64,000 nt of DNA from an uncultured Planctomycetota bacterium (GTDB taxonomy: Bacteria > Planctomycetota > DG-23 > CAZBND01): NCBI GenBank assembly GCA_964493415.1, contig CAZBND010000003.1, positions 90,229 through 154,228 of the forward strand, in the 5' to 3' direction. Every line of letters starts with the position of its first letter. Position 1 is the stretch's first letter. The notes beneath the pieces were generated by a model. The model was not told where the DNA came from, searched no databases, and was given only the letters and a program-made list of their open reading frames with translations. The translations under genes were made by a program, and so were the position numbers. Positions 1 to 42,736 of this stretch are shown here, in pieces.

Positions 1-246
1 ACCGTCTGTACGCCGCGTCCTTTGCGTTGAAAGATGCTGAAACGGGTTCATGCCAACCGTACCCTCTCTCCGGCGTGTATATACTCGACTCCGTTATGGC
101 CACGCATCCCTCCATCACCGGAGACGCCTCGGGCCCCATGTCGAATTCAAAGGGGGGTTCTGATGCAAGCGATGCTGCTGCAAAGCCGGCGAGGAGTAAC
201 AATGCGCCCATGCCGTGTCTCAAGGTCCTGCCTCCTGAAGGCGGCC

Positions 247-1176
247 TCAGCTTCCGCTTGCCGTTCCGACAAGCTGCTGAAGCGAATCCATCCCGTGCTC
301 GTCCAGGTAATCCGCGATTCCCGAAGCAATGCGCGAGCAGACGTTGGGGTCGATGAGGAAACTCGTTCCCACAGCGACAGCCGAAGCGCCCGCCATTACG
401 AACTCCAGCGCGTCCTCAGCCGAGCTGATTCCCCCCATCCCGATAATCTTCGTGCCGGGCGTGGCCGAGAAGACCTCGTGGACTCTTTCGACCGCTATCG
501 CCTTGAGCGCCGGGCCCGATAGACCTCCGGTCGCGTTCCCCAGGACCGGCTTCCGCGAGCGGACGTCTATTGCCATGGCCTTCGCCGTGTTTACCAGCGA
601 CAGGGCGTCCGCGCCGCTGTCCAACGCCGCCTTCGCCAGCTCGATAATCGGCTGCACGTCGGGGGACAGCTTGACAATCAGCGGGAGCTCCGTCGCCTTC
701 CGCACCGCGCTGACAAGTTCGGCAAGGCCCTCCTTCTTCTGCCCGAATTCCGCCGAGCCTTCTTCTACGTTCGGGCACGAGACGTTCAGCTCGATCGCGG
801 ACACCTTCTCCGCCGAGCTCAGCCTGGCGGTCACCTCCACGTATTCCGCCACCGTGAATCCCGCGACATTGGCTATGACGGCGGCAGGGAGGGCTGTCAG
901 CTTGGGCAATATCTGCGAGACTACTTTGTCCACGCCCGGATTCTCCAGGCCGATGGAGTTGATCACTCCGCCGGGCACCTCGGCTATCCTGGGAGGCGGA
1001 TTGCCCTTTCGGGGATTCAGCGTGGTCCCCTTCAGAACGACCGCTCCGACCGCGTCCCAGTCGAAGCCGGAGAGCTCCAACAGCTCCGACCCATAGCCGC
1101 AAGTTCCCGATGCGATCATCACGGGAGAGGAGAGGTCCACCGCGCCTATCCGTACGTCTAGCCGTCTCTTGCCCAT
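247..1176 (-). CDS. pyrD: dihydroorotate dehydrogenase catalytic subunit (class 1B PyrD)
   Basis: TIM-barrel DHODH motifs (MIASGTCGYG, GGISSAEDALEF). ATG verified at 1176; the ORF's upstream extension to 1377 overlaps pyrK and is not used. Short overlap with pyrK stop, typical of pyrK-pyrD. Confidence 0.85.
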   Translation of the reverse strand: MGKRRLDVRIGAVDLSSPVMIASGTCGYGSELLELSGFDWDAVGAVVLKGTTLNPRKGNPPPRIAEVPGGVINSIGLENPGVDKVVSQILPKLTALPAAVIANVAGFTVAEYVEVTARLSSAEKVSAIELNVSCPNVEEGSAEFGQKKEGLAELVSAVRKATELPLIVKLSPDVQPIIELAKAALDSGADALSLVNTAKAMAIDVRSRKPVLGNATGGLSGPALKAIAVERVHEVFSATPGTKIIGMGGISSAEDALEFVMAGASAVAVGTSFLIDPNVCSRIASGIADYLDEHGMDSLQQLVGTASGS

Positions 1177-2492
1177 CCATCCTCCCAGAGTATGTCCTCT
1201 GCGTCGAAAGCCGGGCCGTCGATGCAGACGCGTGCCGGCCCACTCTTGGTCGGAATGCTGCACGACATGCAGGCCCCAAAGCCGCATCCCATCATCTCTT
1301 CCATCAGCACCTGGCAGGGGGTCTTGGAGATGCTGCATAATCTTGCCGTTTCCCTCAGCATCGCCGTCGGGCCGCAAGCGATGACCTCGCAGCCTTCTCC
1401 CCGGCCGGCCAGGAACTCTCTCAGCAAGTCCGTTGCGAGCCCGGTCGGTATGTCGTCGTCCGCCTCGGTGACGACTCTCACGTCGACCCCGAGTTCTCTG
1501 AACTCGTCGAGCGTCGGTGCGCCGTTGCTTTCCGCGGGCGACATGTGAGCCGGTATGTGGTCTTTAGCAGATGCGCCGACCAGGAGAACGGTTTGTCTGT
1601 CGAGGCGAGAAAGCTCTTCCGCGGCGGCGAGCATGGGGGCCAGCCCCATTCCGCCCGCGAGAAGGGCCACCGGCACGTCCTGATGACGCGCCAGGTTTAC
1701 CGGCCTGCCCAACGGACCAAGCGCGTTCACCTTGTCGCCCGCCTTGAGCGACGCCAGCGCCTCCGTCCCCGGTCCCACGACGGCAAAGACCACGCTGAAA
1801 CTCCCGTCAGGTTCACCCGCCTCGTCCCTGTGCAAGCGGTGAAGACTGAAAGGCCGCCGGAGAAACGGTCGTCTGCTGGAATAATCCGGAGCGAGCGTTC
1901 TTCGCACTTCATCCCACTCATCGAAAGTGCGCTTCCCCCGCCTTTCTTCACCGATAAGGATATTCACAAACTGCCCTGCGGAGATGGCCGCTGCGATTTC
2001 GGGCGCGTCGAGCCGCAGCCGGCAAAATCTCCCGAGAAAAGGAGTGTTCGAGAGCACCTGCGCTTCCAGGCGGTGTATCGCTCCCGCGCCTGACGCCGCC
2101 CCCTTCTTCTTCGTGAGGATTACACAGTTGCCGCGGGGAGTGTAGTCCACGCTGTCCATGAACTCCCGCATCAGCAGCATCCCCCGTCCGCAAGGCGTGA
2201 GTAAGTTCTCCTCGTCCGTGGGGTCGGGAATGCTGCACGGGTCGAACCCCTCGCCCTCGTCCTCCACGCACATCTTTACCTGCTGCGGGGTGAACTCGCA
2301 GTCGAGTATCACATGCTTCGTCGGGTCAAGCTTGTTGCCGTGGATCACCGCGTTGGTAATTGCCTCTTCCGCCGCCAACCGGACGGCAAAAACCTCCTCG
2401 GAACTGTAACCGAGTTGCTCGACCCGGTTCGCTATCTCGTCAACGGTCTTCGCGACCTCGCTCATTCTGCTCGGGAGGTACTTCCGTTCCAT
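1158..2492 (-). CDS. pyrK: fusion protein: N-terminal HATPase_c anti-sigma-factor-type Ser kinase domain (RsbW/SpoIIAB-like) + dihydroorotate dehydrogenase electron-transfer subunit PyrK
   Basis: Residues ~1-137 match anti-sigma regulatory kinase motifs (AEEAITNAVIHGN, DEGEGFDP, GRGM). After a Gly/Ala/Ser linker, residues ~150-444 match PyrK (FAD/NAD binding, LLAGGMGLAPM, C-terminal Cys cluster MGCGFGACMSCS). Continuous ORF with no internal stop; ATG verified at 2492. Confidence 0.75.
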   Translation of the reverse strand: MERKYLPSRMSEVAKTVDEIANRVEQLGYSSEEVFAVRLAAEEAITNAVIHGNKLDPTKHVILDCEFTPQQVKMCVEDEGEGFDPCSIPDPTDEENLLTPCGRGMLLMREFMDSVDYTPRGNCVILTKKKGAASGAGAIHRLEAQVLSNTPFLGRFCRLRLDAPEIAAAISAGQFVNILIGEERRGKRTFDEWDEVRRTLAPDYSSRRPFLRRPFSLHRLHRDEAGEPDGSFSVVFAVVGPGTEALASLKAGDKVNALGPLGRPVNLARHQDVPVALLAGGMGLAPMLAAAEELSRLDRQTVLLVGASAKDHIPAHMSPAESNGAPTLDEFRELGVDVRVVTEADDDIPTGLATDLLREFLAGRGEGCEVIACGPTAMLRETARLCSISKTPCQVLMEEMMGCGFGACMSCSIPTKSGPARVCIDGPAFDAEDILWEDGWARDG

Positions 2493-2568
2493 CGGCTGCC
2501 CCTTCGGATTCTCGCGCTATTCTAATCCTCTCCTGCTCTGCGGGCAAGGTGATCGGCCTCCTGCAATT

Positions 2569-18049: not shown

Positions 18050-19729
18050 TCACGCCGCAGTTGAGTTCAGCCCGATTATGATCCTGGCGAGCTTGGCGGG
18101 ATCGTGCCTCAGGAGGTCTTGCTTTTCCCACAGCACGCGCCTGCTCCCGCCTTCCAGCTTCTCCAGCAGGTCCGCCTCGACCACCTGGACCCCCAACCGG
18201 TGCAGGTCCTCGTCCACCTTGACCAGTTCCGCTCCCGCACGTGCATACGCCTCAAGCACTTCGGGAGGCGGTACTTTGTTGTTCACGAGCACATAATCGA
18301 GCGCTTCCGCTCCTATTTGCTCGATTATCGCCTTCACATGGTCCGAGGCGGAATAGCCGTCGGTCTGACCCGGCTGGGTCACAATATTGCATACATACAC
18401 GGTCGTGGCCTTCGATAGACGGACGGCTCCGGCGATTCCTTCGACGAGCAGGTTGCTTATCACACTGGTATACAGACTTCCGGGCCCGAGGATCACATAG
18501 TCGGCCTTGACGATCTCCTCGATAGCCTCTTCGCTCGCGGGAGCGTCTGCAAGGCTGAGGAAGACCCGCTTTATGGGCGGCTTGTTCAGCTTGCGGACGT
18601 TCAGCTCTCCCTCGATTATCTGGCCGTCGTTGAGCTCGGCGCAGATTTGCGCGTCCGCGGTGGTGGAAGGGAGGACTTTCCCCCTTATCGCCAGGATGCG
18701 GCTGGTCTCCTTCAGCGCTTCTTCAAAGCTTCCCGTCACCTTAGCGAGGGCTGCGATGAAAAGATTACCCATCGTCATGCCCTCGAGGGAGCCGTTCTCG
18801 AACCGGTACTGGAACAGCTTGTGAACCAGCTCCTCCGATTCCGCCAATGCCACCAGGCAATTGCGGATGTCCCCCGGCGGCGGCAGCCCGAAATCCGCGC
18901 GTATCTTGCCCGAACTCCTCCCCGCATCCGTGACTGCGACCACAGCCGTCAGGTCTCTCGTGTAGCTCTTGATCCCCTCCAGCAGAATCGGCAGTCCCGT
19001 TCCCCCGCCGACCGCCACCACCTTTGGGTCAGGCCCTCGTTTGCTTCTGTTTATGAACTTTATGTAGTCAACAAGCTCGGAAAGTCTGTCAATCTCGAAG
19101 TGCGGGTCCTCGAGCCCCGAACGCGGCCGCAGATCCTTGAAGCGCCCGTGCCTCATTTGCACGGTGATCATCCCGAGCCTGTTTGAAATCGTTATCTCGG
19201 AATGAATCCTATCGCCGACCGAAATAACCTCGCTCGGGTGGAGGGAATAGCTGCGCATGATATCCAGGTAGCACTCTTCCTGCGTTGGGCCACGCTCCTC
19301 GTCGCTGATGATGATCTCGTCGAAGTACGGCCTGAGCCCCAGCATGTCTATCTTGCGCTCTTGCCTGCCGTGCACTCCACGGGTTACCAGGAAAGTCATG
19401 ATGGAAGCTTCGCGCAGCCTGCTCAGCGTGGGAACAACGTCAGGGAAGGGCCTGATGTCCAGCACTTCATCGCTGTTGTAGCCTTCCAGGGCCGCCTTGA
19501 CAAGTTCGTCTCCCATGCCGTACGTCTGGGCGATCTTGTCGAAGGCGTTTACCCGGGGGCCAAATCGCTCGGCGATTTCCAACTGCTTTTGGTAGGCGGC
19601 CTCTTCCGAGAGCGGAAGCCCCGCCCGCACCATGGCCCTGGCTGCGCGCCGTCGTGCCGCTTCAACCAATAGGCCGCTGCAGTCGTAGAGCGTGTCGTCC
19701 AGGTCGAAAATCGCAGCTCTTACGCTCAC
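18050..19729 (-). CDS. fusion: N-terminal HAD-superfamily phosphatase domain + YvcK/CofD-family (UPF0052, gluconeogenesis factor) domain
   Basis: Residues 1-~215 carry HAD motifs (FDLDDTLYD, SVGDRIHSEI). Residues ~225-559 align by eye over the whole length with B. subtilis YvcK (GGGTGLPILL, PPPGDIRNCLVAL, LGPGSLYTSV, TDGYSASDH). Confidence 0.75.
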   Translation of the reverse strand: MSVRAAIFDLDDTLYDCSGLLVEAARRRAARAMVRAGLPLSEEAAYQKQLEIAERFGPRVNAFDKIAQTYGMGDELVKAALEGYNSDEVLDIRPFPDVVPTLSRLREASIMTFLVTRGVHGRQERKIDMLGLRPYFDEIIISDEERGPTQEECYLDIMRSYSLHPSEVISVGDRIHSEITISNRLGMITVQMRHGRFKDLRPRSGLEDPHFEIDRLSELVDYIKFINRSKRGPDPKVVAVGGGTGLPILLEGIKSYTRDLTAVVAVTDAGRSSGKIRADFGLPPPGDIRNCLVALAESEELVHKLFQYRFENGSLEGMTMGNLFIAALAKVTGSFEEALKETSRILAIRGKVLPSTTADAQICAELNDGQIIEGELNVRKLNKPPIKRVFLSLADAPASEEAIEEIVKADYVILGPGSLYTSVISNLLVEGIAGAVRLSKATTVYVCNIVTQPGQTDGYSASDHVKAIIEQIGAEALDYVLVNNKVPPPEVLEAYARAGAELVKVDEDLHRLGVQVVEADLLEKLEGGSRRVLWEKQDLLRHDPAKLARIIIGLNSTAA

Positions 19730-31367: not shown

Positions 31368-31427
31368 GCTTGTGTTTGCGCGTATGAAGTCAACAAGGCT
31401 TTTTCCCCGAAGTTGGGGGGCGGGCCC

Positions 31428-32198
31428 GTGAAGCTGGCCATATCCGGAAAGGGCGGCGTTGGCAAAACCACCATCGCGGCAGGGCTTTCACGCCGGTACA
31501 CTGCCAAGGGCTTCAGCGTCCTCGCCGTCGACGCAGACCCTGATGCAAATCTTGCTGGGGCGTTGGGTTATGACGGCGACATCACGCCCCTGAGTGAGAT
31601 GAAAGAGCTCATCGCCGAGCGCACCGGCGGACAGCCGGGCACTTACGGGGCTTTCGTGAAGCTTAACCCCGAAGTCGCGGACCTGCCCGATCGTCTGACG
31701 GTCGAAGTCCAGGGAGTCAAGGTTCTCACGCTGGGTGCTGTGAAGAGGGGAGGCGGCGGCTGCGCCTGCCCGGAGAATGTGTTGCTGAGGAACCTCCTCT
31801 CGCACCTGATCCTCAGACGGGACGAGCACGTAATAGTGGACATGGAGGCCGGCGTCGAGCATCTGGGTCGCGCCACTGTCCAGGCAGTGGATGCCCTCGC
31901 AGTGGTTGTCGAACCGTCTCAACGCAGCGCCGGAACCGCCTTTCGAATCCGAGAACTTGCACGGGAAATCGGGTTGGCGAACGTCCTGGCCATAGGCAGC
32001 AAGGTGAAAGGGCCGGAGGACCGGGGTTTTCTGGAAAGCCGACTCGAAGGGTTTCCAATTCTGGGCTGGATATCGTACAATGAACGGATCGTGCGGGCGG
32101 ACCAGGTAGGCGAGGGAAGTGCCCTGGACGCCCCGCTTTTTGTCAGGGAAATTGATGAGATAATCGGCCATCTCGTTCGCTATCAGTCGGACTCCTGA
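31428..32198 (+). CDS. cooC: CooC/AcsF-type Ni-insertion accessory ATPase (MinD/ParA family)
   Basis: Deviant Walker A GKGGVGKTT, CooC-like C-x-C (GGGCACPEN). GTG at 31428 after a G-rich SD; the ORF also opens at TTG 31413. Confidence 0.75.
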   Translation: MKLAISGKGGVGKTTIAAGLSRRYTAKGFSVLAVDADPDANLAGALGYDGDITPLSEMKELIAERTGGQPGTYGAFVKLNPEVADLPDRLTVEVQGVKVLTLGAVKRGGGGCACPENVLLRNLLSHLILRRDEHVIVDMEAGVEHLGRATVQAVDALAVVVEPSQRSAGTAFRIRELAREIGLANVLAIGSKVKGPEDRGFLESRLEGFPILGWISYNERIVRADQVGEGSALDAPLFVREIDEIIGHLVRYQSDS

Positions 32199-32260
32199 TC
32201 CAGCCGGACCGATTGCCGATCTTTGAAGGGACTTCGCGATAAGGCGGAAGGAGCGTCCTG

Positions 32261-34444
32261 ATGTCGAAAATCATCTGCAGCGCGGCCATCCGTGGGGCAC
32301 GCAAGCTCGTGAAGCGCGCCGAGGACAAGCTCGAAGAGGCCGTCAAAGCCAAAGGCGAAGAGTGCAAGGTCGAATTCCCCAATACCGGTTACTTCTTGCC
32401 CGTGATCTATGGCATCCTGGGTGAGCAGGTAGAGAAGCTGGTCGATATGAGGCCGATTCTTGAACGGGCAAAGGCGCTTCTCCCGCCGGAGCCGGACGAG
32501 AGCGCCTGGCTTCCCTACCTCGGCCAGGCTCTCGACGCGGGCATGGCGACGCTCTTCGCCGAAGAAATTATCGAGGCCTGCAAATACGTCGTCGGGCCCA
32601 ACCCGCTCGGCGAGTTGTGGCTAGGCGCTGCCGATGATGTGATCATGAGGGAGCGTGGCATTGAATTCGTCGATGGCACCGCCCCGGGATTTGCGGCCTG
32701 TGTCGGCGCCTGTCCCACTAACGAAATAGCCGTCAAGCTAGCCCGCGAGCTCCAGCAAAAAAGCCTCTACGTATTCATGTCCGCCTCCACTGACGGCAAG
32801 TGCATGGCCGAGCAGCTCGAAGAGGAAGGCGTTCAGATGGGCTGGGAGACGCGTCTCGTCCCGTTCGGCAAGGACATCTCCTCCACCATCTATTCGCTTG
32901 GCTTCGCCACCAGGGCCGCGCTTTCTTTCGGCGGCGTCCAGCCCGGCGATTACGTCAGGGCGCTCAGGTACAACAAGAACAGGATATTCGCCTTTGTTCT
33001 CGCGCTGGGGGAAGTTGACGACGAGAAATACGCTACCGCAGCGGGAGCCATCAACTACGGCTTTCCGGTGATCGCCGACACCGACATCCCCCAAATTCTC
33101 CCCACGGGCGTTTGCACTTACGAGCATGTCGTTTCCAGGGTTCCTCACGACAAGCTCGTGGAGAGAGCAATCGAGGTCCGGGGGCTCAAGATCAAGATCA
33201 CGGAGATACCGATACCCGTTCCGTACAGTCCCGCCTTCGAGGGCGAGAGGATTCGCAAAGAGCAGACCTACGTCGAGATGGGCGGGCAGAAGACCAAAGC
33301 CTTCGAGTGGGTGACCAGCAAGGACTCCTCCGTCGTCGAGGACGGAAAAGTCGAGATCATCGGGCCGGAGATCGACGAAGTCGAGGAAGGTGCCCAACTC
33401 CCGCTGGGCATCGTCGTAGAGGTGAGCGGCAGGAAGATGCAGCCGGACTTCGAGCCGATTCTGGAACGCCAGGTTCATACGTTCCTGAACGAGGCCCAGG
33501 GGATATTCCACATGGGCCAGCGCGACATCTCGTGGGTCAGGGTAAGCAAGGAGGCCCGCGAGGCCGGGCTGAAACTCGAACACTTCGGCAAAATCCTCCA
33601 CGCCCAGCTTCATACGAACTTCTCCGCCATCGTGGACAAGGTCCAGGTGAAAATCTACACCAAGGAAGAAGATGTTTCCGCCCTTCTGGAAAAGGCCAGA
33701 GAGGTATTTCTCCAGCGCGATGCGAGACTCGCCGGCATGACCGACGAATCGGTTGAAACCTTCTACTCGTGCACCCTCTGCCAGTCTTTCGCGCCCAATC
33801 ACGTCTGCGTCATCACTCCCGAGCGGCCGGGCCTTTGCGGAGCCTACAATTGGCTCGACGGCCGCGCCGCTTACGAAATAACCCCCTCCGGCCCTAACCA
33901 GCCTATCGAGAAGGGGGCCGTGATCGACGAGAAGCTGGGACAGTGGGAAAAGGTGAATCAGTTCGTCTACGAGAACTCGAACCGCACCATCGAGAAGTTC
34001 AGCGCCTACAGCATGATAAACGACCCGATGACGTCTTGCGGCTGTTTCGAGTGCATTTCGGTAATGCTTCCCATGGCCAACGGGATCATGATCGTGAACA
34101 GAGAGTTCCCCGACATGACGCCGTGCGGCATGAAATTCTCCACGCTCGCGGGCTCCGTCGGCGGCGGCAACCAGACGCCCGGCTTCGTCGGCCACAGCAA
34201 GCAGTACATCCATTCCAGGAAGTTCATCAGCGCCGACGGCGGGCTGGCGCGCGTCACCTGGATGCCGAAGGCGCTCAAGGAAGAGATAGGCGAGGCGGTA
34301 ACAAAGAGAGCGGCGGAAATGGGCCTGGGCGAAGACTTCCTTGACAAGGTCGCGGACGAGACTGCGGCCCAGACGGAGGAGGAAGTCCTTGAATTCATCA
34401 CCGGGAAGGAGCACCCCGCGCTCACGATGGACCCGATGTTCTGA
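32261..34444 (+). CDS. acsB: acetyl-CoA synthase catalytic subunit (CODH/ACS subunit AcsB / CdhC)
   Basis: Co-linear by eye with Moorella AcsB over the full ~727 aa, including A-cluster ligands (CGAYNWLD ... CGCFEC) and C-terminal HPALTMDP. Confidence 0.9.
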   Translation: MSKIICSAAIRGARKLVKRAEDKLEEAVKAKGEECKVEFPNTGYFLPVIYGILGEQVEKLVDMRPILERAKALLPPEPDESAWLPYLGQALDAGMATLFAEEIIEACKYVVGPNPLGELWLGAADDVIMRERGIEFVDGTAPGFAACVGACPTNEIAVKLARELQQKSLYVFMSASTDGKCMAEQLEEEGVQMGWETRLVPFGKDISSTIYSLGFATRAALSFGGVQPGDYVRALRYNKNRIFAFVLALGEVDDEKYATAAGAINYGFPVIADTDIPQILPTGVCTYEHVVSRVPHDKLVERAIEVRGLKIKITEIPIPVPYSPAFEGERIRKEQTYVEMGGQKTKAFEWVTSKDSSVVEDGKVEIIGPEIDEVEEGAQLPLGIVVEVSGRKMQPDFEPILERQVHTFLNEAQGIFHMGQRDISWVRVSKEAREAGLKLEHFGKILHAQLHTNFSAIVDKVQVKIYTKEEDVSALLEKAREVFLQRDARLAGMTDESVETFYSCTLCQSFAPNHVCVITPERPGLCGAYNWLDGRAAYEITPSGPNQPIEKGAVIDEKLGQWEKVNQFVYENSNRTIEKFSAYSMINDPMTSCGCFECISVMLPMANGIMIVNREFPDMTPCGMKFSTLAGSVGGGNQTPGFVGHSKQYIHSRKFISADGGLARVTWMPKALKEEIGEAVTKRAAEMGLGEDFLDKVADETAAQTEEEVLEFITGKEHPALTMDPMF

Positions 34445-34458
34445 AAGGGGAAGCGCAA

Positions 34459-35814
34459 ATGGCCCTCAGCGGATTGGAGATCTTCAAGCTCCTGCCCAAG
34501 ACGAACTGTCGAGACTGCGGCAGGCCCACCTGCCTTGCCTTCGCCATGCAGCTCGCCCAGAAGAAGGCTAACCTCAGCGACTGTCCACATGTCAGCGACG
34601 AGGCGAAGTCCGCGCTCGACGAAGCGTCCGCACCCCCAATCCGCGGAGTTACGATCGGAAGCGGCGATAGAGCCCTGAAGATGGGCGAAGAAACCGTTCT
34701 CTTCCGGCACGATGAGAAATTCTATAACCCCGCCGGAATAGCGGTCCGCGTCCGGGATACCCTATCGCCCGACGACCTTCGCGAGAAGTACAAGCGCATA
34801 CAGGCTCTCCGCTTCGTCAGGGTCGGGATGGACCTGGAGGTCGAGGCGGCGGCCGTCGAAAACGCTAGCGGCGAGGCCGCTAAATTCGAGGAGGCCGTCA
34901 AGATCGCCGCTGAAGAGACGGACCTCGTCCTCGTCCTGATGAGCGAGACGCCGGAGCACATCTGTCGCGCTCTCGAAGTTTGCGCAGATAAGCGCCCACT
35001 TATTCATGCTGCGACCAAGGACAACTGGAAGGAGATGGCCGCCCTCGCCAAGACGAAGTGCTGTCCTCTCGTAGTGCGTGCGCCGAGCCTTGAGGAACTG
35101 GCGGATCTTACCGGAAAGGTGACGGCCGAAGGAGTCGAGGACCTTGTGCTGGATTTCGTCTCCACAGACCCGAAAACACTACTGCAATCCCTGACGATGG
35201 CCCGCCGGGCGGCGCTCAAGAAGACTTTCAGGCAGCTCGGATATCCCTCAATCGCATTCACCGGCGTCGATGACCCCTTCGACGACAGCGCCCGCGCCTG
35301 CATGTTCATGGCCAAGTACGCGAGCCTGATCGTCGTCAACACTGACGAGCCATGGGCAATCCTTCCAATCCTCACCGTCAGACAGAATATCTTCACCGAC
35401 CCGCAGAAGCCCATTCAGGTCGAGCCCAAGCTCTACGCAGTCGGCGAGCCGGACTCCAAGTCGCCCGTGCTCTTCACTACGAACTTCTCCCTGACGTACT
35501 ACACCGTCGAAGGGGACGTCGAGGCCAGCCGCGTGCCCGCCCATATCCTCGTCGTCGATACCGAAGGCACCTCGGTTCTCACCGCCTACTCGGGGGACAA
35601 GCTCAGCGAGAAGACCGTGGCCAAGGCGATGAAGGACGCCAACCTCGAAAGCGTTGTCGGTCACAAGAAGATAATAATCCCCGGGTTGATCGCGGTAATG
35701 TCGGGGAAGCTCGAAGAAGAGTCCGGGTGGCAGGTCCTGGTCGGGCCTAGGGAGTCTTCCGCCATCCCGACGTATCTCAAGACGGTTTGGCCCAAAGAGA
35801 TCGAGGCCGCTTGA
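34459..35814 (+). CDS. acsC: corrinoid iron-sulfur protein large subunit (AcsC / CdhE)
   Basis: N-terminal 4Fe-4S motif CRDCGRPTCLAFAMQLA...SDCP. Co-linear with Moorella AcsC (~446 aa). Confidence 0.9.
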   Translation: MALSGLEIFKLLPKTNCRDCGRPTCLAFAMQLAQKKANLSDCPHVSDEAKSALDEASAPPIRGVTIGSGDRALKMGEETVLFRHDEKFYNPAGIAVRVRDTLSPDDLREKYKRIQALRFVRVGMDLEVEAAAVENASGEAAKFEEAVKIAAEETDLVLVLMSETPEHICRALEVCADKRPLIHAATKDNWKEMAALAKTKCCPLVVRAPSLEELADLTGKVTAEGVEDLVLDFVSTDPKTLLQSLTMARRAALKKTFRQLGYPSIAFTGVDDPFDDSARACMFMAKYASLIVVNTDEPWAILPILTVRQNIFTDPQKPIQVEPKLYAVGEPDSKSPVLFTTNFSLTYYTVEGDVEASRVPAHILVVDTEGTSVLTAYSGDKLSEKTVAKAMKDANLESVVGHKKIIIPGLIAVMSGKLEEESGWQVLVGPRESSAIPTYLKTVWPKEIEAA

Positions 35815-35892
35815 GGCCGCGTTCGCTGGGGAAATGACGAGGAGCGGCGGTCTCCGGTTGCTTGCTTCTCCATACGTTTTTCAAGAGGAACC

Positions 35893-36546
35893 ATGCGGCG
35901 GCTCCGCTACCGAATCAACCCGCACTCCCTGGGGGACCTGGCCGTATGGATATTCGTGGCGATGTTCTTCATGATGAATGCGGGCTCGGTCCCGGCGCAA
36001 TTCTTGTCCCCTTCTTCGACTCGGCTTCAGGGGCTTCAGTTGGTGGCTTTCGTGGGAGTCGGACTCCTCTTCCTGCTGCTTAGGAAGCTCATCAGCCGGG
36101 GCGTGAAGGCCGAGCTGGAGAGCGGCGGCCCCGGCCCCGTTGCTTTGGCTCACGCCGTTGCACTCGCGGTTTTTGGAGCTATGAGCATTCACGTCGTTTT
36201 CGTAGTGACGGCGGCGGTAGTCGTCGGCTGGGCCGCTGTTAGGTTGCCCGAGCTTGGTGTGCGGATTCTCGCTCCGGCCTTCAATTGGGCTCTCGCTCCT
36301 TTCGCTGCGGGCCTATGGGCGGGCTGGAGGGTGGGCTTCGCCGGCTGGGGCTTCGCGGCAGCGTCTTTCGCGTTGTTCCAGGGCATCTGGCTTGGGATTC
36401 CCGCATCAGTCGGCTGGACCGAGTGGCTTGACAATCAGGTTGTGATCGGCTTGGCGGCGGCCATACCTTTAGCGGCGGCAGGCGGCGCGCTCGGCTCCTC
36501 TCTCTTCGCCCGAAAGGCCTCCAGGGCGGACTCGGAATCCGCCTAG
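35893..36546 (+). CDS. hypothetical polytopic membrane protein (about 6 TM segments) embedded in the acs cluster
   Basis: Hydrophobic Ala/Gly/Trp-rich helices. No recognisable family. ATG verified. Confidence 0.45.
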   Translation: MRRLRYRINPHSLGDLAVWIFVAMFFMMNAGSVPAQFLSPSSTRLQGLQLVAFVGVGLLFLLLRKLISRGVKAELESGGPGPVALAHAVALAVFGAMSIHVVFVVTAAVVVGWAAVRLPELGVRILAPAFNWALAPFAAGLWAGWRVGFAGWGFAAASFALFQGIWLGIPASVGWTEWLDNQVVIGLAAAIPLAAAGGALGSSLFARKASRADSESA

Positions 36547-36562
36547 GAGTGGAACGTGTGAC

Positions 36563-38494
36563 ATGTTGGTCAAAGACCAGTGCAAGATTCATTTTGTCCC
36601 TTCCGGCCTTGAGGCTGACGTTCCGGCCGGCACCACCGTTCTCGAAGCCGCTCAAGGGCTGGGGGTCGCGATCAACAGCATCTGCGGCGGCGACGGCATC
36701 TGCGGGAAGTGCAAGGTGCAGGTCGTCCAGGGCAAAGTTGACACTCCTCCGACAATGCTGCTGAGTCGGGACGAGGTCCAGCGCAACTATGTGTTGGCCT
36801 GCCAAGCCAAGCTGGTCGAGGGAGACGTTGTCATAAACGTTCCCCAAGAGTCACGCTTGGCCGGAGGGCAGATACTGCTTGACCGCGACGCCGAGAGGCT
36901 CGCAGATATGGGCGGCGCATACCCTGCGGAAAGCAGGTTTCGACTCGACCCGCTTGTGAAGAAGTTCTATCTCGAACTCGACCCTCCCACCATCGACAAT
37001 AATCTGGCCGACCACGAAAGGGTCTATCAGGCTATACGCCGAAGCGAAAAGCGGTTCGCCCTGCAGACGGGCTTTGCGGCGCTTAAGGCGCTTCCGGGAA
37101 CACTCAGACAAGCCGATTGGAAGGTCACCGCGACAGTCGCCTGCAGGGGCGACATCGGGGAACTCGTCCAGGTCGAGCCCGGCGATACCTCCTCCAGGAA
37201 CTACGGTGTCGCCGTCGACGTCGGCACTACCACGGTCGTCGCCCACCTGGTCGACATGACTACTTCGAGAACGGTACATACCGAAGCCACGTATAATTCC
37301 CAGATCAAGTTCGGTGAAGACTACATCAGAAGGATCATGTACGCGGTGGAGAACGATGCGTTGGAGTTGTTGCAAAGCATTCTCGTAGACGACATCAACG
37401 ATCTCATCACCACGCTGGTGCAGCACAGCGGGGTCAGCCTTAACGACATAACAGCCGTGATGTGCTCCGGCAACACGGCCATGATCCATTTTCTGCTGGG
37501 CCTGGATCCGTCGTTGATTCGGAAAGACCCCTACATCCCAGTGGCGAACTTCATACCCCCGATTCGCGCGGCTCAGGTGGGAATTCGGATAAACTCCCGG
37601 GGACTGCTTTTCGTCCTGCCCAGCGTCGCCGCTTACGTGGGGAGCGACATAACCGCGGGAGTCCTGGTGCTGCGGCTCAATGAATCCGACGAGACATGCG
37701 CCTTCATCGACGTGGGAACCAACGGCGAAGTGGTAATAGGCAACAAGGACTGGATGGTCTGCTGCTCTGCCTCGGCAGGGCCGGCGTTCGAGGGCAGCGG
37801 GGTGAAAAACGGGATGCGAGCAAGCGCCGGGGCTATCGAACGTCTCGAAATCGCCGATGACTACAAAGTCCTCTACAGCACCATAGGAGACGAGCCGCCG
37901 CGAGGGATTTGCGGCTCCGGACTGATAGACTGCATCGCGGCGCTGAGAAAGGCCGGCGCAGTGGACAGGACGGGGCGCTTCGTTGCCGACATGCCGCCTG
38001 AAAAGCTGCGGCGCGAAGACGACGAAGCACAGTTCATTCTCGTGCCGGCAGGCAAGACGGCAACGGACTCCGAAATAGTCATCACCCAGGCGGACGTCAT
38101 GAACCTGATGCGCTCGAAGGGGGCTGTCTATGCCGCGATCAGCACCCTCTTGGACTCGGTTTCCCTCTCTGCCGCTGACCTGTCCCATCTCTACCTGGCC
38201 GGCGGCTTCGGGAACTACCTCGACGTCAACAACGCCATAATTGTCGGGATGCTCCCCGACATGCCCCGCGAGCGGGTCGTGTTCGTAGGCAACACGTCCG
38301 TAGCGGGCGCAAAGACCTCGCTGCTTTCCATCGAGGCGTTTCAGCAATCTGCAGCGATCGCCTCATCAATGACCTATTTCGATTTGATGGGGAACCCCAG
38401 CTACATGGACGAGTTCATCTCGGCCAATTTCCTTCCGCACACCGACATCGAAAAGTTCCCCTCTGTTGAAAAGGTACTCAGGAGGGTGGAGTGA
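36563..38494 (+). CDS. reductive activator of corrinoid Fe-S protein (RACo; 2Fe-2S ferredoxin domain + ASKHA ATPase)
   Basis: N-terminal plant-type ferredoxin motif (CGGDGICGKCKV) and C-terminal ASKHA-fold ATPase region. Length (~640 aa) and cluster context match RACo. Confidence 0.8.
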   Translation: MLVKDQCKIHFVPSGLEADVPAGTTVLEAAQGLGVAINSICGGDGICGKCKVQVVQGKVDTPPTMLLSRDEVQRNYVLACQAKLVEGDVVINVPQESRLAGGQILLDRDAERLADMGGAYPAESRFRLDPLVKKFYLELDPPTIDNNLADHERVYQAIRRSEKRFALQTGFAALKALPGTLRQADWKVTATVACRGDIGELVQVEPGDTSSRNYGVAVDVGTTTVVAHLVDMTTSRTVHTEATYNSQIKFGEDYIRRIMYAVENDALELLQSILVDDINDLITTLVQHSGVSLNDITAVMCSGNTAMIHFLLGLDPSLIRKDPYIPVANFIPPIRAAQVGIRINSRGLLFVLPSVAAYVGSDITAGVLVLRLNESDETCAFIDVGTNGEVVIGNKDWMVCCSASAGPAFEGSGVKNGMRASAGAIERLEIADDYKVLYSTIGDEPPRGICGSGLIDCIAALRKAGAVDRTGRFVADMPPEKLRREDDEAQFILVPAGKTATDSEIVITQADVMNLMRSKGAVYAAISTLLDSVSLSAADLSHLYLAGGFGNYLDVNNAIIVGMLPDMPRERVVFVGNTSVAGAKTSLLSIEAFQQSAAIASSMTYFDLMGNPSYMDEFISANFLPHTDIEKFPSVEKVLRRVE

Positions 38495-40344
38495 AGCTTC
38501 AGACTCGGATAGCGGGATCGTCCTGTTTATGCCTGTTGTTGGCGGCGGGTTTTGCCGCTGCTCCTGCGGATGCCGCCGTCCTTGACAGGCTGGGGGCGGT
38601 TCAGGACAAGGTGGCGGCCCTCAGGGGGCTCCACTTCAAGCAGCCGGTAGAGGCCAAGGTCGCCACCAAGACCGACGTGATCGTGCTGCTCATCGAAGAA
38701 CTTCACGAGCAGTTGACCCCGGAGGATTTTGAGAGCTTCGAGACCTCTTTCGAGAAGTTCGGCGTGCTTCCCCCAAATACCGATCTGTTGGCTCTTCTTG
38801 TCGGGCTCTACAGTGAAGAGGCGGCGGGGCTTTATGATCCCAGGGGAAAACGCCTTTGGGTGAATGAGGAGATCGCCGGCTTCTTCTCCGAGATAGCCCT
38901 CTCCCACGAGCTCACGCACGCCCTGCAGGACCAGCACTTCGACATAATGTCCATGCCTTTGATGGAAAAGGGAGAGGACGACCTCGTCCTCGCGACCAGC
39001 GCTCTGCTGGAGGGCGACGCCTCCATCTCGATGTTCCAATACTTTCTGGGAGACTCGGCGCTCGTGGACGAAGTCGTCGATGCCGGTGTGGCGGATATGA
39101 TGGATGCGATGCTGCCGGTCTACGGAGGCGCACTCGGGGACGCGCCGGGTCTGATCAAGGCCGTAGTTGTGTTCCCGTACACCTACGGCATGGAATTCGT
39201 TCAGGCGGTGAAGAGAATCGGGGGCTGGCAAGCCGTCAATCAGCTCTACCAAGTGCGTCCCATTTCGACAGAGCAGATACTGCATCCGGCGGAGAAGTTC
39301 CTGGACAACGACCCTCCCGTAAGCGTGGATTTGCCCGACCTTTCGCCCCTGCTGGGGGAAGAATGGAAAGCCCTGCCGGCGAACGTGCTGGGAGAGTTCC
39401 AGCTTCGCGTCGTGTTGGGGGAGCTGCTTGAAGATGCCGCCGCGGCAGAACTGGCCGCCGCTGGATGGGATGGCGACAGGTATAGGTGCTACAAGGGTCT
39501 CGATGGGGTCTTGCTGACCTGGGTTGCGCTTTGGGATACGGAGGAAGATGCCAAGGAGTTCTTTGCCGCGTACGGCCCCGTTCTCCGAAGCAAGTATCTG
39601 ACAGATACTGCGTCCGAGTCAAGGACGCCGGCTTCCTATACCGTCAGCGACGCCGGAAAAGTCTCGCGCATAAGCGTGAGAGGAAACCAAGCGGTCGTCG
39701 TGGAAAGCCTCCCCGCCGACCTCCTCTCGGAAGCTGAGGAATTGCTCTGGGAGGCTGGAGTCACCGAACTCCCCAAGGCTGATACCTCCAGGTTCACAGC
39801 GGGCCGGCATATTCCCGTGAGAGAAGTCTCTGCTCCGTGGCACGAGCCGAAGGGGAGGGTAGAGGGCGAGCGTTTCATCAGCGACGAGCTCGGCTTCGAG
39901 GTATCTCTGCCCGGCAGCGACTGGGCCTTCCTTGATGAGCTTCCGCAGCCCATGATGGCGGCGGGTATCGTCCACAAGGACCGCTATGCGGCAGTCAACA
40001 TTGTCGTTCCACCCTTCGGCGGCCTGCTTTCGGTGCGGCAGCTTGCGGAAATGGTAAAGGCCGGCCTGGGAGCATTGGGGGCGGACTCCAGCGTGATCGC
40101 AGAGGGTGTGACCGAGATCGGCGGGGAACAAGGCTATCAAGTCACTTCCGAGGTGACCATGTTTGGCACTGCTCAGAGAGTCCGCCAAGTGCTCGTCGAG
40201 CATGAGGGAAAGACGTTCATCATAACGTCAACCAGCGACTCGGCGGATTTCGATCTTCTCCTGGAAGAGATATTGTCCATGGAGCGGAGTTTCATTTTCC
40301 GCTCCGAAACGCATTCCCCTTCTGAGCAAGAGGCGGCAGAATGA
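38491..40344 (+). CDS. secreted HExxH-motif protein (putative zinc metallopeptidase, MA-clan-like)
   Basis: Signal peptide MKLQTRIAGSSCLCLLLAAGFAAAPADA. HELTHALQDQH zincin-like motif. 4-bp overlaps with both flanking genes (RACo stop, cooC2 start). Confidence 0.55.
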   Translation: MKLQTRIAGSSCLCLLLAAGFAAAPADAAVLDRLGAVQDKVAALRGLHFKQPVEAKVATKTDVIVLLIEELHEQLTPEDFESFETSFEKFGVLPPNTDLLALLVGLYSEEAAGLYDPRGKRLWVNEEIAGFFSEIALSHELTHALQDQHFDIMSMPLMEKGEDDLVLATSALLEGDASISMFQYFLGDSALVDEVVDAGVADMMDAMLPVYGGALGDAPGLIKAVVVFPYTYGMEFVQAVKRIGGWQAVNQLYQVRPISTEQILHPAEKFLDNDPPVSVDLPDLSPLLGEEWKALPANVLGEFQLRVVLGELLEDAAAAELAAAGWDGDRYRCYKGLDGVLLTWVALWDTEEDAKEFFAAYGPVLRSKYLTDTASESRTPASYTVSDAGKVSRISVRGNQAVVVESLPADLLSEAEELLWEAGVTELPKADTSRFTAGRHIPVREVSAPWHEPKGRVEGERFISDELGFEVSLPGSDWAFLDELPQPMMAAGIVHKDRYAAVNIVVPPFGGLLSVRQLAEMVKAGLGALGADSSVIAEGVTEIGGEQGYQVTSEVTMFGTAQRVRQVLVEHEGKTFIITSTSDSADFDLLLEEILSMERSFIFRSETHSPSEQEAAE

Positions 40345-41111
40345 GTTTCCGAATAGCGCTTTCCGGCAAGGGCGGCTCCGGCAAAACGACCATTGCGGCA
40401 CTCATGATCAAGGCTCTCACCGAGCAGAGCGACGGCGCTGTCCTTGCGGTCGATGCCGACCCGAACGCGACGCTGGCCATGGCCCTTGGCATAGAGCCCC
40501 GACGAACCATCTCCGACATGAGACAGGACATGATGGACAGGCGCATTGAAATCCCCGCCGGGGTCCCCAAGGAAAGGGTCTTCGAGTACAAGTTCCATGA
40601 GCTTGTCGACGAACACCCCGGCTTTGACTTCCTTTCCATGGGAAGGCCGGAAGGCCCGAAGTGCTACTGCTACGTGAATCACCTCTTGCGCAAGTACCTT
40701 GACCGGCTCTCGTCCGATTACGCGTACGTGGTAATTGATAACGAGGCCGGGATGGAGCATCTCTCTCGCCGGACCACCGACAGCGTGGACCTTCTTATCC
40801 TGGTCTCACAGCCCACGCTCGTAGGCCTGGAGTCAGTTCGCCGCATATCCGCCCTGGCGTCCACACTGCCCATCACCGTCAAGCGGCAGGAACTCGTTCT
40901 CAACATGGCAAAGGGCGGACATGCTTCTTCCGAGATCGTCGCGAGTGCCCGCGAGATGGGCTATGGGCCCTTTTTCTCGGTGCCATCCGACCCCCAGGTC
41001 GAGCAAGCCTGGGAAAAGGGGCTCTCCCTCCTTGAACTTACACCTGCGAGCCCGGCCTATGCCTCGGTGTCAGCAATGATCCGTGAACTCTTGTGCATTG
41101 GCGTTAATTGA
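40341..41111 (+). CDS. cooC: second CooC/AcsF-type Ni-insertion ATPase
   Basis: GKGGSGKTT deviant Walker A. MinD/ParA fold with the CooC-type Cys pair (CYCY). Confidence 0.75.
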   Translation: MSFRIALSGKGGSGKTTIAALMIKALTEQSDGAVLAVDADPNATLAMALGIEPRRTISDMRQDMMDRRIEIPAGVPKERVFEYKFHELVDEHPGFDFLSMGRPEGPKCYCYVNHLLRKYLDRLSSDYAYVVIDNEAGMEHLSRRTTDSVDLLILVSQPTLVGLESVRRISALASTLPITVKRQELVLNMAKGGHASSEIVASAREMGYGPFFSVPSDPQVEQAWEKGLSLLELTPASPAYASVSAMIRELLCIGVN

Positions 41112-41163
41112 TCTAGATTCTAACTAGGGAGCCTGTGGTCTTGGACTTGGACAGGAGGAGCCG

Positions 41164-41949
41164 ATGATAGCGGTTGGTGAGAGGATCAACGGGATGTACT
41201 CCGACGTTAAGAAGGCCATTCAAAAATCCGACCCGGTCCCTATCCAGGAACTCGCGAAAAGGCAGACAGAGGCGGGCGCGACTTTCTTGGACATCAACGT
41301 CGGTCCGGCCGCCGCCGATAAGGTGGCCGCCATGAGGTGGCTCGTCGAGGTCACTCAAGATGCGGTGGACACTCCTCTGTCAATCGACAGCCAGACCTTT
41401 GATGTCGTCCGCGCCGGCCTTGAAGCCTACAATGGCAAGGCTCTCATTAACAGCACAAAGGGCGACGCGGAACTGCTTCAGAAATACTTCGACTTGGCCG
41501 GTGAGTTCGACGCATCTTTGGTCGTTCTCACTATGGATGAGAGAGGAGTCCCCGCCAACACGGACACCAGGGTGGAGATCGCGGCCACCGCAGCGACAAT
41601 GGCCATGGAGGCCGGGTTCAACACCGACAGGCTTTACATCGATCCTATAGTGCTTCCCGTGAACGTGGCCCAGGATCAGCCGAGGTGCATCTTTGAGGCC
41701 ATCGACCAGATCAAAATCCTTTCCGACCCGCCCCCTCATGTGATAGTCGGGCTCAGCAATATCTCGCAGAGCACCAAAGAGCGGGAGCTCATCAACAGGA
41801 CCTTTCTCGTCATGGCGATAGCCGCCGGGCTCGACGCGGCAATCATGGACGTGCTGGACGACGACCTGATGGAGGCCGCCATCACGGCGGACATGATCCT
41901 TAACAAGCACATATACTGCGATTCGTTCCTCAAGGCGTACAGGAAGTAG
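41164..41949 (+). CDS. acsE: methyltetrahydrofolate:corrinoid/iron-sulfur protein methyltransferase (pterin-binding)
   Basis: Pterin-binding TIM barrel (GERINGM, INVGPA, LINST motifs). About 261 aa, as in Moorella AcsE. RBS GGAGG. Confidence 0.85.
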   Translation: MIAVGERINGMYSDVKKAIQKSDPVPIQELAKRQTEAGATFLDINVGPAAADKVAAMRWLVEVTQDAVDTPLSIDSQTFDVVRAGLEAYNGKALINSTKGDAELLQKYFDLAGEFDASLVVLTMDERGVPANTDTRVEIAATAATMAMEAGFNTDRLYIDPIVLPVNVAQDQPRCIFEAIDQIKILSDPPPHVIVGLSNISQSTKERELINRTFLVMAIAAGLDAAIMDVLDDDLMEAAITADMILNKHIYCDSFLKAYRK

Positions 41950-41968
41950 GCACCAAAGGAGGCGCGCC

Positions 41969-42736
41969 ATGAAGACTCTGATTCTTGTCCTCGTTGCCCT
42001 CGCCCTCACCCTCGCCCCTGTGGCCGCGGCCGGTAACCCGAAAGCGACACCCACGCCCGTCCCCGGCCAGCCCAAGATCGCCTCGCCCGAAGAGGCGAAA
42101 GCGGCCATAGCAGCCGTCAAAGAGGCGGAGGAGGAGAAGGAACTCCTCGCCGCAATCAAACGCTTGGGGGAGGTCTACTACCCCAAGAAGCCCCTGTCTA
42201 CGGTGGCATTTGCCCTTTCCATCGTGATGGATGAAAAGCGGAGCATGGAAGCCCGTGCCGGCGCCGCCGCCGTTCTCGGCAAGTTCCACGACAAGTCGGT
42301 CGTTCCCGCTCTCAGCAAGTATGTGATCAATCCGAACGTCAAAAGGGAAGTTCCCCTTTCCAGCGCCATCGCTACGGCCCTGGGCGAGATAGGTGACCCT
42401 GGAGCCATAAGCGCCCTGGAAAGGCTTGCCACCTACAAGGAAACCCCCGTGGCAGTGGCCTCAGCCAGAGCCCTCGGGAAAGTCAAACACAAGAAAGCTA
42501 TTGAGGAGCTAATCAAGATCCTGGATGTGACCGAGGACCCCGACGACGCGTCAAGCTCTCGCCAGAAGAGGTACGCTCAGATTGCGGCCGCCGCCAGGTT
42601 GTCGCTCGTAGCTCTTACCAAGGAGTCCTTCTTCTCCGCGACGGAATACAGAAAATGGTGGAAGGAGAACGAGAAGGATTTCAAATTCGAGCCGCCGAAG
42701 GTCACGCCGACCCCGGCCCCGGCGGCGAAGAGATAA
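41969..42736 (+). CDS. secreted HEAT/PBS-lyase-like repeat protein
   Basis: Signal peptide. Repeated VR..AA.ALG.IGDP.A...L motifs typical of HEAT_2/PBS lyase repeats. Confidence 0.55.
   Translation: MKTLILVLVALALTLAPVAAAGNPKATPTPVPGQPKIASPEEAKAAIAAVKEAEEEKELLAAIKRLGEVYYPKKPLSTVAFALSIVMDEKRSMEARAGAAAVLGKFHDKSVVPALSKYVINPNVKREVPLSSAIATALGEIGDPGAISALERLATYKETPVAVASARALGKVKHKKAIEELIKILDVTEDPDDASSSRQKRYAQIAAAARLSLVALTKESFFSATEYRKWWKENEKDFKFEPPKVTPTPAPAAKR

Follow-up and report, generated by a model that had tools for sequence, protein, structure and literature searches.

An RsbW-type kinase domain fused in frame to PyrK, the electron-transfer subunit of dihydroorotate dehydrogenase B, in a small uncultured bacterial clade

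Introduction

What is a kinase domain of the anti-sigma-factor type doing on a subunit of a pyrimidine-biosynthetic enzyme? The question is raised by a 64,000-nt stretch of DNA from an uncultured Planctomycetota bacterium (GenBank assembly GCA_964493415.1, contig CAZBND010000003.1, positions 90,229 to 154,228; hereafter the window), in which a single open reading frame (ORF) joins an RsbW/SpoIIAB-type kinase domain to PyrK, the electron-transfer subunit of dihydroorotate dehydrogenase B (DHOD B). SpoIIAB and RsbW inhibit sigma factors by binding them, in a manner that depends on ATP/ADP, and we know of no characterised member of this kinase family that acts on a metabolic enzyme. The controls of bacterial pyrimidine synthesis known to us are allosteric or transcriptional. 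A first-pass annotation, made from the letters of the window alone, had proposed that the fusion implies phospho-regulation or sequestration coupled to dihydroorotate oxidation, with an assembly or frameshift artefact as the alternative. Partner-switching modules, consisting of a STAS antagonist, an RsbW-type kinase and a PP2C phosphatase, are widespread, and the outputs of many "non-canonical" systems are unknown (PMC8256260).

Results

Recurrence of the fusion in independent assemblies and lineages

The ORF is ATG-started and runs without interruption over 444 codons to a stop codon at 1158-1160, as first described. Its product consists of three parts, in order a HATPase_c_2 domain (residues 1-128), a 14-residue variable linker and a complete PyrK (Table 1). 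The exact protein (P0001) was present on seven contigs, with records from NCBI, JGI, ENA and Logan assemblies. The 1,335-nt gene was recovered with zero mismatches in five other contigs (L005-L008, L065), belonging to two ENA assemblies and three JGI contigs, and four further JGI/ENA sample or assembly accessions are represented among them. Two related lineages encode the same 444-aa fusion. P0003 has a 68% identity to the protein of the window, is exactly 444 aa long, contains the same domains and was found on eight contigs. P0002 (~68% identity, 444 aa) shares a 90% cluster with three other 444-aa variants, and one variant of this cluster lies on a contig of 283 kb. The three fused orthologues align with zero indels and the length of the linker is exactly conserved.

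One aberrant record was observed. P0390, a 123-aa fragment on an ENA contig of 1271 nt, is close to P0002 over its ~98 first residues and has an unrelated C-terminus; a frameshift from low coverage or a chimeric end of the contig is the probable cause, which shows that single short contigs of this gene can mislead. This low-quality fragment, together with the difference of just 2 nt between split and fused forms (see below), is what can be said for an assembly chimera or a sequencing frameshift having joined two genes, a probability that is as good as nil given the identical gene in five further contigs with four further accessions, the indel-free ORF in two ~68%-identical lineages, the additional 444-aa variants and the uniform G+C over the junction (0.596 compared to 0.63; window 0.60). 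The fusion is real.

Split-gene sister lineages

The closest PyrK without a kinase domain (P0004; 307 aa, 57-58% identity) is encoded on a contig of a metagenome-assembled genome labelled "uncultured Planctomycetota bacterium". The same syntenic slot in L009/L011 contains a separate 138-aa HATPase_c_2 gene (P0388), which ends in ...SGK-TGA and whose stop overlaps the pyrK start as ATGA. An independent JGI metagenome yielded the identical split pair (L145), and a second split lineage (L146; Logan SRR29492073) has an 81%-identical kinase with the same ATGA junction, the ORF after it beginning MIRDICATVITNTLFLERYCRLRLE, the PyrK N-terminus. The junction arithmetic (138 + 307 - 1 = 444) agrees with the DNA alignment, in which fused and split forms differ by 2 nt net. 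A change of this size at the ATGA overlap thus produced the fusion, and the linker is therefore the former kinase C-terminus joined to the residues with which PyrK began. The Gly/Ala/Ser-rich linker of the first-pass annotation is present, although it lies slightly upstream of the region around 2040-2090 where its junction had been placed.

A neighbour-joining tree of 42 kinase domains (200 bootstraps) grouped the five pyrK-linked kinases as a clade in 176/200 replicates, the three fused kinases in 198/200 and the two split kinases in 200/200. Kinases and PyrKs outside this clade stand alone, so that separate but juxtaposed genes make the logical intermediate and the fusion is derived, a polarity from split to fused that we infer. 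The pattern on which Rosetta-stone logic builds was found in full: the two genes are separate and adjacent in L009/L011, L145 and L146, the fused state is reproducible, and fused and split forms are sister clades.

Kinase half

The N-terminal domain matched the Pfam family HATPase_c_2 (PF13581) over residues 7-128 (E = 5.5e-30; 104.4 bits compared to a cut-off of 27.4), and the match spans profile positions 2-127 of 127. Residues 41-53 of the domain read AEEAITNAVIHGN. Family alignments of 20 and 32 sequences, to which all pyrK-linked members were added, revealed that every family-invariant residue (E43, N47, H51, G52, N53, D78, E79, G80, G82, F83, G102, R103 and G104) is kept in all five lineages. 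The AlphaFold2 (AF2) model of the domain had a mean predicted local distance difference test score (pLDDT) of 93.6, and its predicted fold matched Bacillus subtilis RsbW (6m36/6m37; target-normalised TM-score, TMt, 0.85-0.90), SpoIIAB (query-normalised TM-score, TMq, 0.74-0.78) and LvrC (9qih; TMq 0.83-0.86) by Foldseek. The top Protein Data Bank (PDB) matches by sequence were the same entries (LvrC, E = 1.6e-10). The beta1/alpha1 elements are retained in the model. Scores against the NCBIfam equivalogs were far below cut-off, both for TIGR01925 (SpoIIAB; 49.7 compared to 135) and for NF003144 (RsbW; 41.5 compared to 145), and for this reason we regard the domain as a broad HATPase_c_2 member and not as an orthologue of RsbW or SpoIIAB proper. 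Its N-terminus is ~11 residues shorter than in the nearest free kinases.

Two cysteines, Cys86 and Cys101, flank the ATP-lid loop (window 2190-2237, minus strand), and within the clade they are present in the fused subclade only. C86 occurs in only 11/238 family members, and C101 accompanies it in 8 of those 11 compared to 41/227 of the others (Fisher P = 2e-4, uncorrected for phylogeny); half of the co-occurrences are clade members. The two residues may form a paired site or a redox switch.

PyrK half

Pfam identified NAD_binding_1 (residues 277-382) and DHODB_Fe-S_bind (PF10418; residues 398-434, E = 1.3e-12, 47.7 bits compared to a cut-off of 23.9) in the C-terminal part. The best NCBIfam PyrK match was NF000798 with 118 bits compared to a cut-off of 219 (residues ~206-435), which is below the equivalog cut-offs. 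This half is a divergent subfamily with an insertion, and its membership therefore rests on context, motifs and fold; with both halves scoring below their equivalog cut-offs, each is placed in a broad family within which it is divergent. Foldseek matched the predicted fold to PyrK of the Lactococcus lactis DHOD B (1ep1_B, 5ksw_B; TMt 0.84-0.85), and the NfnI small subunit also superposed on the model. The motif RRPFS, which we take to be FAD-binding from what is known of the ferredoxin-reductase superfamily, the NAD-binding motif and the four iron–sulfur cysteines are all present (Table 1). The domain assignments of the first-pass annotation, and every motif that it quoted, were thus borne out for both halves. 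In the full-length model (pLDDT 87.7; predicted template modelling score 0.79) the linker was of intermediate confidence. Both halves look fully competent, given that their motifs are retained and their predicted folds match known structures. There was no second pyrK copy within the window.

The insertion in the FAD-binding barrel (~29 residues, disordered in the model) is common to a wider PyrK subfamily and holds a clade-conserved GKR[S/T]F motif. The S/T189 of this motif (T189 here; 1926-1928, minus strand) was found in 4/4 full-length PyrKs of the clade compared to 1/13 of the kinase-less homologues aligned. As a phospho-acceptor it was rejected as too weak a candidate, with a neighbouring F-[DE] motif also occurring in kinase-less outgroups.

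Selection on the two halves

For the three fused orthologues, pairwise Nei-Gojobori comparison gave ratios of non-synonymous to synonymous substitution (dN/dS) of 0.15-0.20 for the kinase domain, 0.15 for PyrK and 0.5-0.7 for the linker, values that are rough since dS exceeds 1 (1.0-1.5 among the fused lineages). Amino-acid identities displayed the same pattern, with 70-75% for the kinase domain, 68-75% for PyrK and 21-29% for the linker. By these sequence comparisons the kinase half is under purifying selection like that on PyrK.

Distribution and nearest relatives

When 1.84 billion 50%-cluster representatives were searched exhaustively with phmmer, the cluster of this clade was the only one with a full-length two-domain match, and the other long PyrK homologues scanned from the phmmer list had unrelated N-terminal regions. 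No kinase was found beside pyrK at any of 46 other loci from GTDB species-representative genomes. Among the 80 best metagenome kinase loci, pyrK adjoined the kinases of clade members only (0/77 non-clade loci), and a STAS gene lay within the short locus in 45 of the 77 non-clade loci. The architecture is thus limited to one small uncultured clade of five sequence lineages. Public records hold no name for proteins of this architecture, and in the literature searched no paper ties PyrK to anti-sigma or partner-switching kinases. The parts belong to known families; the joining of HATPase_c_2 to PyrK and the kinase-pyrK-pyrD operon were without counterpart in the databases and literature searched.

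The nearest free kinases (45-54% identity, 138-155 aa) are annotated as RsbW or BtrW-type and come mostly from Planctomycetota and Phycisphaerae. Those examined lie directly 3' of a STAS gene and divergent from groES-groEL. In L058-L062 (e.g., L060:2948-4438) this RsbV/RsbW-like pair of STAS and HATPase_c_2 genes is kept divergent beside groES-groEL. Of the two genes, the sources give a name only to the kinase (RsbW). This layout hints at a control by partner switching that is tied to the chaperonin locus.

Other extended PyrK homologues, none of them encoded in the window, were observed during these searches. P0006, P0009, P0018, P0026, P0038, P0076, P0290, P0332, P0343 and others, from other phyla, are ~430-483 aa long and have an unannotated N-terminal domain of 110-190 aa with the core "D..W...G+..W+F ... 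C.DSSGN.G.I.P..LL"; where a source is given it is Candidatus Abyssubacteria (P0026) or Candidatus Lindowbacteria (P0038). The DSSGN of this core recalls a STAS phospho-site. An assignment of the domain to STAS or HATPase was rejected, as neither Pfam nor the PDB sequences gave a match and hhalign put the probability of a match to the kinase profile at 0.3%. P0257 (1119 aa) and P0354 (1124 aa) combine an N-terminal N6_N4 DNA-methylase-like domain with a complete C-terminal PyrK-like module. PyrK seems to have gained N-terminal add-on domains repeatedly. Among the kinases, P0247 (303 aa) contains two tandem HATPase_c_2 domains.

Operon and genomic context

The fusion gene lies directly upstream of pyrD, as the first-pass annotation had it, and its end overlaps the pyrD start by 19 nt. 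The gene order around the orthologues is kept, comprising aconitase large and small subunits, malate/lactate dehydrogenase, fumarase, proB, a larE-like gene (minus strand), the fusion, pyrD, a gene for a ~1,150-aa protein and ADH. The larE homologue is transcribed divergently relative to the fusion gene. Synteny was identical in all orthologous loci, with pyrD coupled to pyrK in each.

No STAS, PP2C or sigma gene was found among the annotated called genes at ~2.5-44 kb of the window, among the large ORFs at ~45-64 kb, or within ~20 kb around the P0003 orthologue. A tblastn search of the whole window and the orthologous loci gave no match for two Planctomycetota STAS proteins (neighbours of the closest kinases), for B. 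subtilis SpoIIAA or for a PP2C domain.

Table 1. Features of the fusion gene and its immediate surroundings in the window.
Feature	Residues	Position (nt)	Strand	Evidence
Whole fusion ORF		1158..2492	-	444 codons plus stop; identical to P0001
RsbW/SpoIIAB-type GHKL (HATPase_c_2) domain	1-128	2109..2492	-	Pfam PF13581; AF2 model; Foldseek
N-box EEAITNAVIHGN	42-53	2334..2369	-	E43/N47/H51/G52/N53 invariant in family alignments
G1 box DEGEGFD	78-84	2241..2261	-	Family alignments
G2 box GRG	102-104	2181..2189	-	Family alignments; ATP-lid loop between G1 and G2
Gly/Ala/Ser-rich linker	129-142	2067..2108	-	Low identity and raised dN/dS (values in text); junction alignment
PyrK (dihydroorotate dehydrogenase B electron-transfer subunit)	143-444	1161..2066	-	Pfam, NCBIfam, Foldseek
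Low-confidence insertion in FAD-binding barrel	183-211	1860-1946	-	pLDDT <50 at 183-190 and 203-211; alignment
Presumed FAD-binding motif RRPFS	212-216	1845..1859	-	Invariant among PyrK sequences aligned
NAD-binding motif GGMGLAPM	280-287	1632..1655	-	Pfam and alignment
2Fe-2S ligand cysteines	C403, C408, C411, C423	1224..1286	-	PF10418; all four invariant in two alignments
pyrD, class-1B dihydroorotate dehydrogenase catalytic subunit		247..1176	-	PF01180, 260 bits; NF005574, 382.6 bits compared to cut-off 269
Shine-Dalgarno-like GAAGGGG		2499-2505	-	6 nt 5' of fusion ATG; read in the sequence, weak evidence
Sigma-70-like promoter match		2519-2547	-	Consensus scan, 1 site compared to 0.4 expected; weak evidence

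The gene for the ~1,150-aa protein starts ~23 nt past pyrD in every lineage (window 1-223, minus strand, running off the window; L005:8270-11719; L001:12269-15709; L009:6276-9728). Its product has a hydrophobic, signal-peptide-like N-terminal stretch and a weak C-terminal CARDB match, with no other Pfam or NCBIfam match, and is probably a cell-surface protein with no evident link to the fusion. Further away, an acetyl-CoA synthase/CO dehydrogenase (Wood-Ljungdahl) cluster at 31413-42736 (plus strand) encodes CdhC/ACS (32261-34444), CdhD, a RACo-type activator, two CbiA/ParA-like ATPases and a pterin-binding protein, which indicates that the organism is probably an anaerobe. An anaerobic lifestyle fits an NAD-linked class-1B dihydroorotate dehydrogenase. 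A 559-aa protein encoded at 18050-19729 (minus strand) combines an N-terminal HAD hydrolase with a CofD/YvcK-family domain.

Discussion

The comparisons show that kinase, PyrK and PyrD became genetically coupled 1:1, by translational coupling first and by fusion later, with both parts of the fusion under purifying selection and their active-site motifs intact. By Rosetta-stone logic, kinase and PyrK would be expected to interact physically. This suggests a partner-switching module re-targeted from a sigma factor to a metabolic enzyme, and we consider it somewhat probable that the direct partner of this RsbW-type kinase is DHOD B, which would either be controlled by the anti-sigma-type ATP switch or act as its antagonist or sensor.

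Of these two directions we lean, tentatively, to the first, in which the ATP-binding Bergerat domain would be a dedicated nucleotide-dependent regulatory subunit of DHOD B. A paralogue of the STAS-partnered RsbW-type kinase/anti-sigma module of Planctomycetota was recruited immediately upstream of pyrK-pyrD; two sister lineages keep it as a translationally coupled 138-aa gene, and, with the polarity given above, it was fused by the net 2-nt change in the ancestor of the other three, that of the window among them. In an ATP/ADP-dependent manner the domain would bind PyrK-PyrD, phosphorylate it on Ser/Thr, or both, and thereby gate the passage of electrons from dihydroorotate over FMN, the 2Fe–2S cluster and FAD to NAD+. 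Relief could perhaps come from a STAS-type antagonist encoded elsewhere in the genome, and pyrimidine synthesis would thereby be tied to energy or purine-nucleotide status. The direction is favoured because the kinase lies inside the enzyme operon, is made stoichiometrically with the enzyme and, unlike its closest relatives, has no signalling partner nearby. The phospho-regulation or sequestration put forward in the first-pass annotation is backed by the split-gene sisters and by purifying selection; the analysis turned up neither a substrate nor a STAS partner or sigma factor for it.

Several points weigh against enzyme regulation. Fusions of neighbouring genes can be functionally neutral, and the dN/dS values are rough, as noted above. 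No phospho-acceptor or binding interface was identified, the sole candidate acceptor being S/T189 in a disordered PyrK loop, based on four sequences. Characterised members of the kinase family target STAS proteins, sigma factors or PP2C phosphatases (PMC8256260), and no metabolic enzyme is known among their targets. LvrC, the best structural match, has its fused partner as input, which favours the opposite direction of control (PMC13269768).

That opposite direction is nearly as plausible, though doubtful in its own right. PyrK or the whole DHOD B would then be a trigger enzyme that senses redox state, NAD(H) or turnover, upon which the Bergerat domain would release or sequester a sigma factor, or phosphorylate a STAS protein, encoded elsewhere. 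In this way transcription would be reprogrammed according to pyrimidine or redox status, with PyrK replacing the usual input or antagonist. The STAS/sigma-type partners of the characterised family and of the closest relatives speak for it, as does LvrC, the top match by both structure and sequence, with its fused input and anti-sigma output (PMC13269768). The FAD, 2Fe–2S cluster and NAD(H) on PyrK would suit redox sensing, and the kinase motifs and the beta1/alpha1 dimerisation elements are retained. However, no sigma, STAS or PP2C gene was found in the window, as far as annotated, or within ~20 kb of the orthologues, PyrK is an intact enzyme subunit that is translationally coupled to pyrD and has no second copy in the window, and a 1:1 stoichiometry with a housekeeping enzyme would be unusual for an anti-sigma factor.

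It is improbable that the kinase merely shares the pyrK-pyrD transcript while serving STAS or sigma partners of its own, the 2-nt change having been tolerated without functional meaning. Such a change at an ATGA overlap is trivially easy, the linker is unconstrained, the split form works in the sister lineages and the architecture is confined to one small clade. Adjacency of kinase and pyrK has, however, been kept over five lineages despite divergence of the kinase to 50-60% identity and near-saturation of synonymous sites, and the pyrK-linked kinases form a paralogous clade apart from the STAS-linked ones. The fused state persists without reversion or decay and with a fixed linker length in three ~68%-identical lineages, and a cost would normally be expected if an enzyme complex had an unrelated dimeric signalling protein tethered to it.

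A Bergerat domain that has lost catalysis and serves DHOD B only as a structural or oligomerisation domain is very unlikely. DHOD B is a heterotetramer (PDB 1EP1). The dimerisation of the kinase family via beta1/alpha1 (PMC13269768) could be put to such a use, and the lack of an identified substrate is compatible with it; strict conservation of N-box, G1 and G2 in five lineages is not expected of a purely structural role.

If enzyme and kinase are indeed partners, this would be the first defined non-sigma, non-STAS enzymatic target of the kinase family and a new layer of control on de novo pyrimidine synthesis. The conserved fusion and its split sister state name a concrete candidate kinase partner outside transcription, for five lineages of one uncultured clade and with a function deduced throughout.

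Compared to the RsbW, SpoIIAB and BtrW kinases, the domain agrees in its Bergerat fold, its size of ~130 residues and its N-box, G1 and G2 motifs; where they are paired with a STAS or sigma gene, it is joined to PyrK or coupled to it in translation, and it forms its own paralogous clade. LvrC of Leptospira (PDB 9qih; chain label "SenB" in the sequence file), the best match among solved structures, likewise links a Bergerat domain covalently to a second functional domain (PMC13269768). That second domain is a receiver (REC) at the N-terminus of LvrC, which serves as a signalling input of the classical type while the Bergerat domain provides the anti-sigma output (PMC13269768), whereas here it is a C-terminal flavin/iron–sulfur enzyme subunit. 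Mycobacterium tuberculosis Rv1364c (PDB 3ke6) and the PP2C-HATPase_c_2 fusion P0057 also join HATPase_c_2 to another protein, there one of its own pathway, which indicates that the domain tolerates fusion to its interacting partner. The known fusions, to REC (LvrC), PP2C (P0057, Rv1364c) or STAS, all join signalling domains and none involves a metabolic enzyme. On the enzyme side, the C-terminal half shares with PyrK of the L. lactis DHOD B (1EP1/5KSW) and with the NfnI small subunit (5JCA_S) the FAD/NAD ferredoxin-reductase fold and the C-terminal 2Fe–2S cluster (TMt 0.79-0.85), and it is set apart from both by the FAD-barrel insertion, which the wider subfamily has too, and by the kinase domain at its N-terminus.

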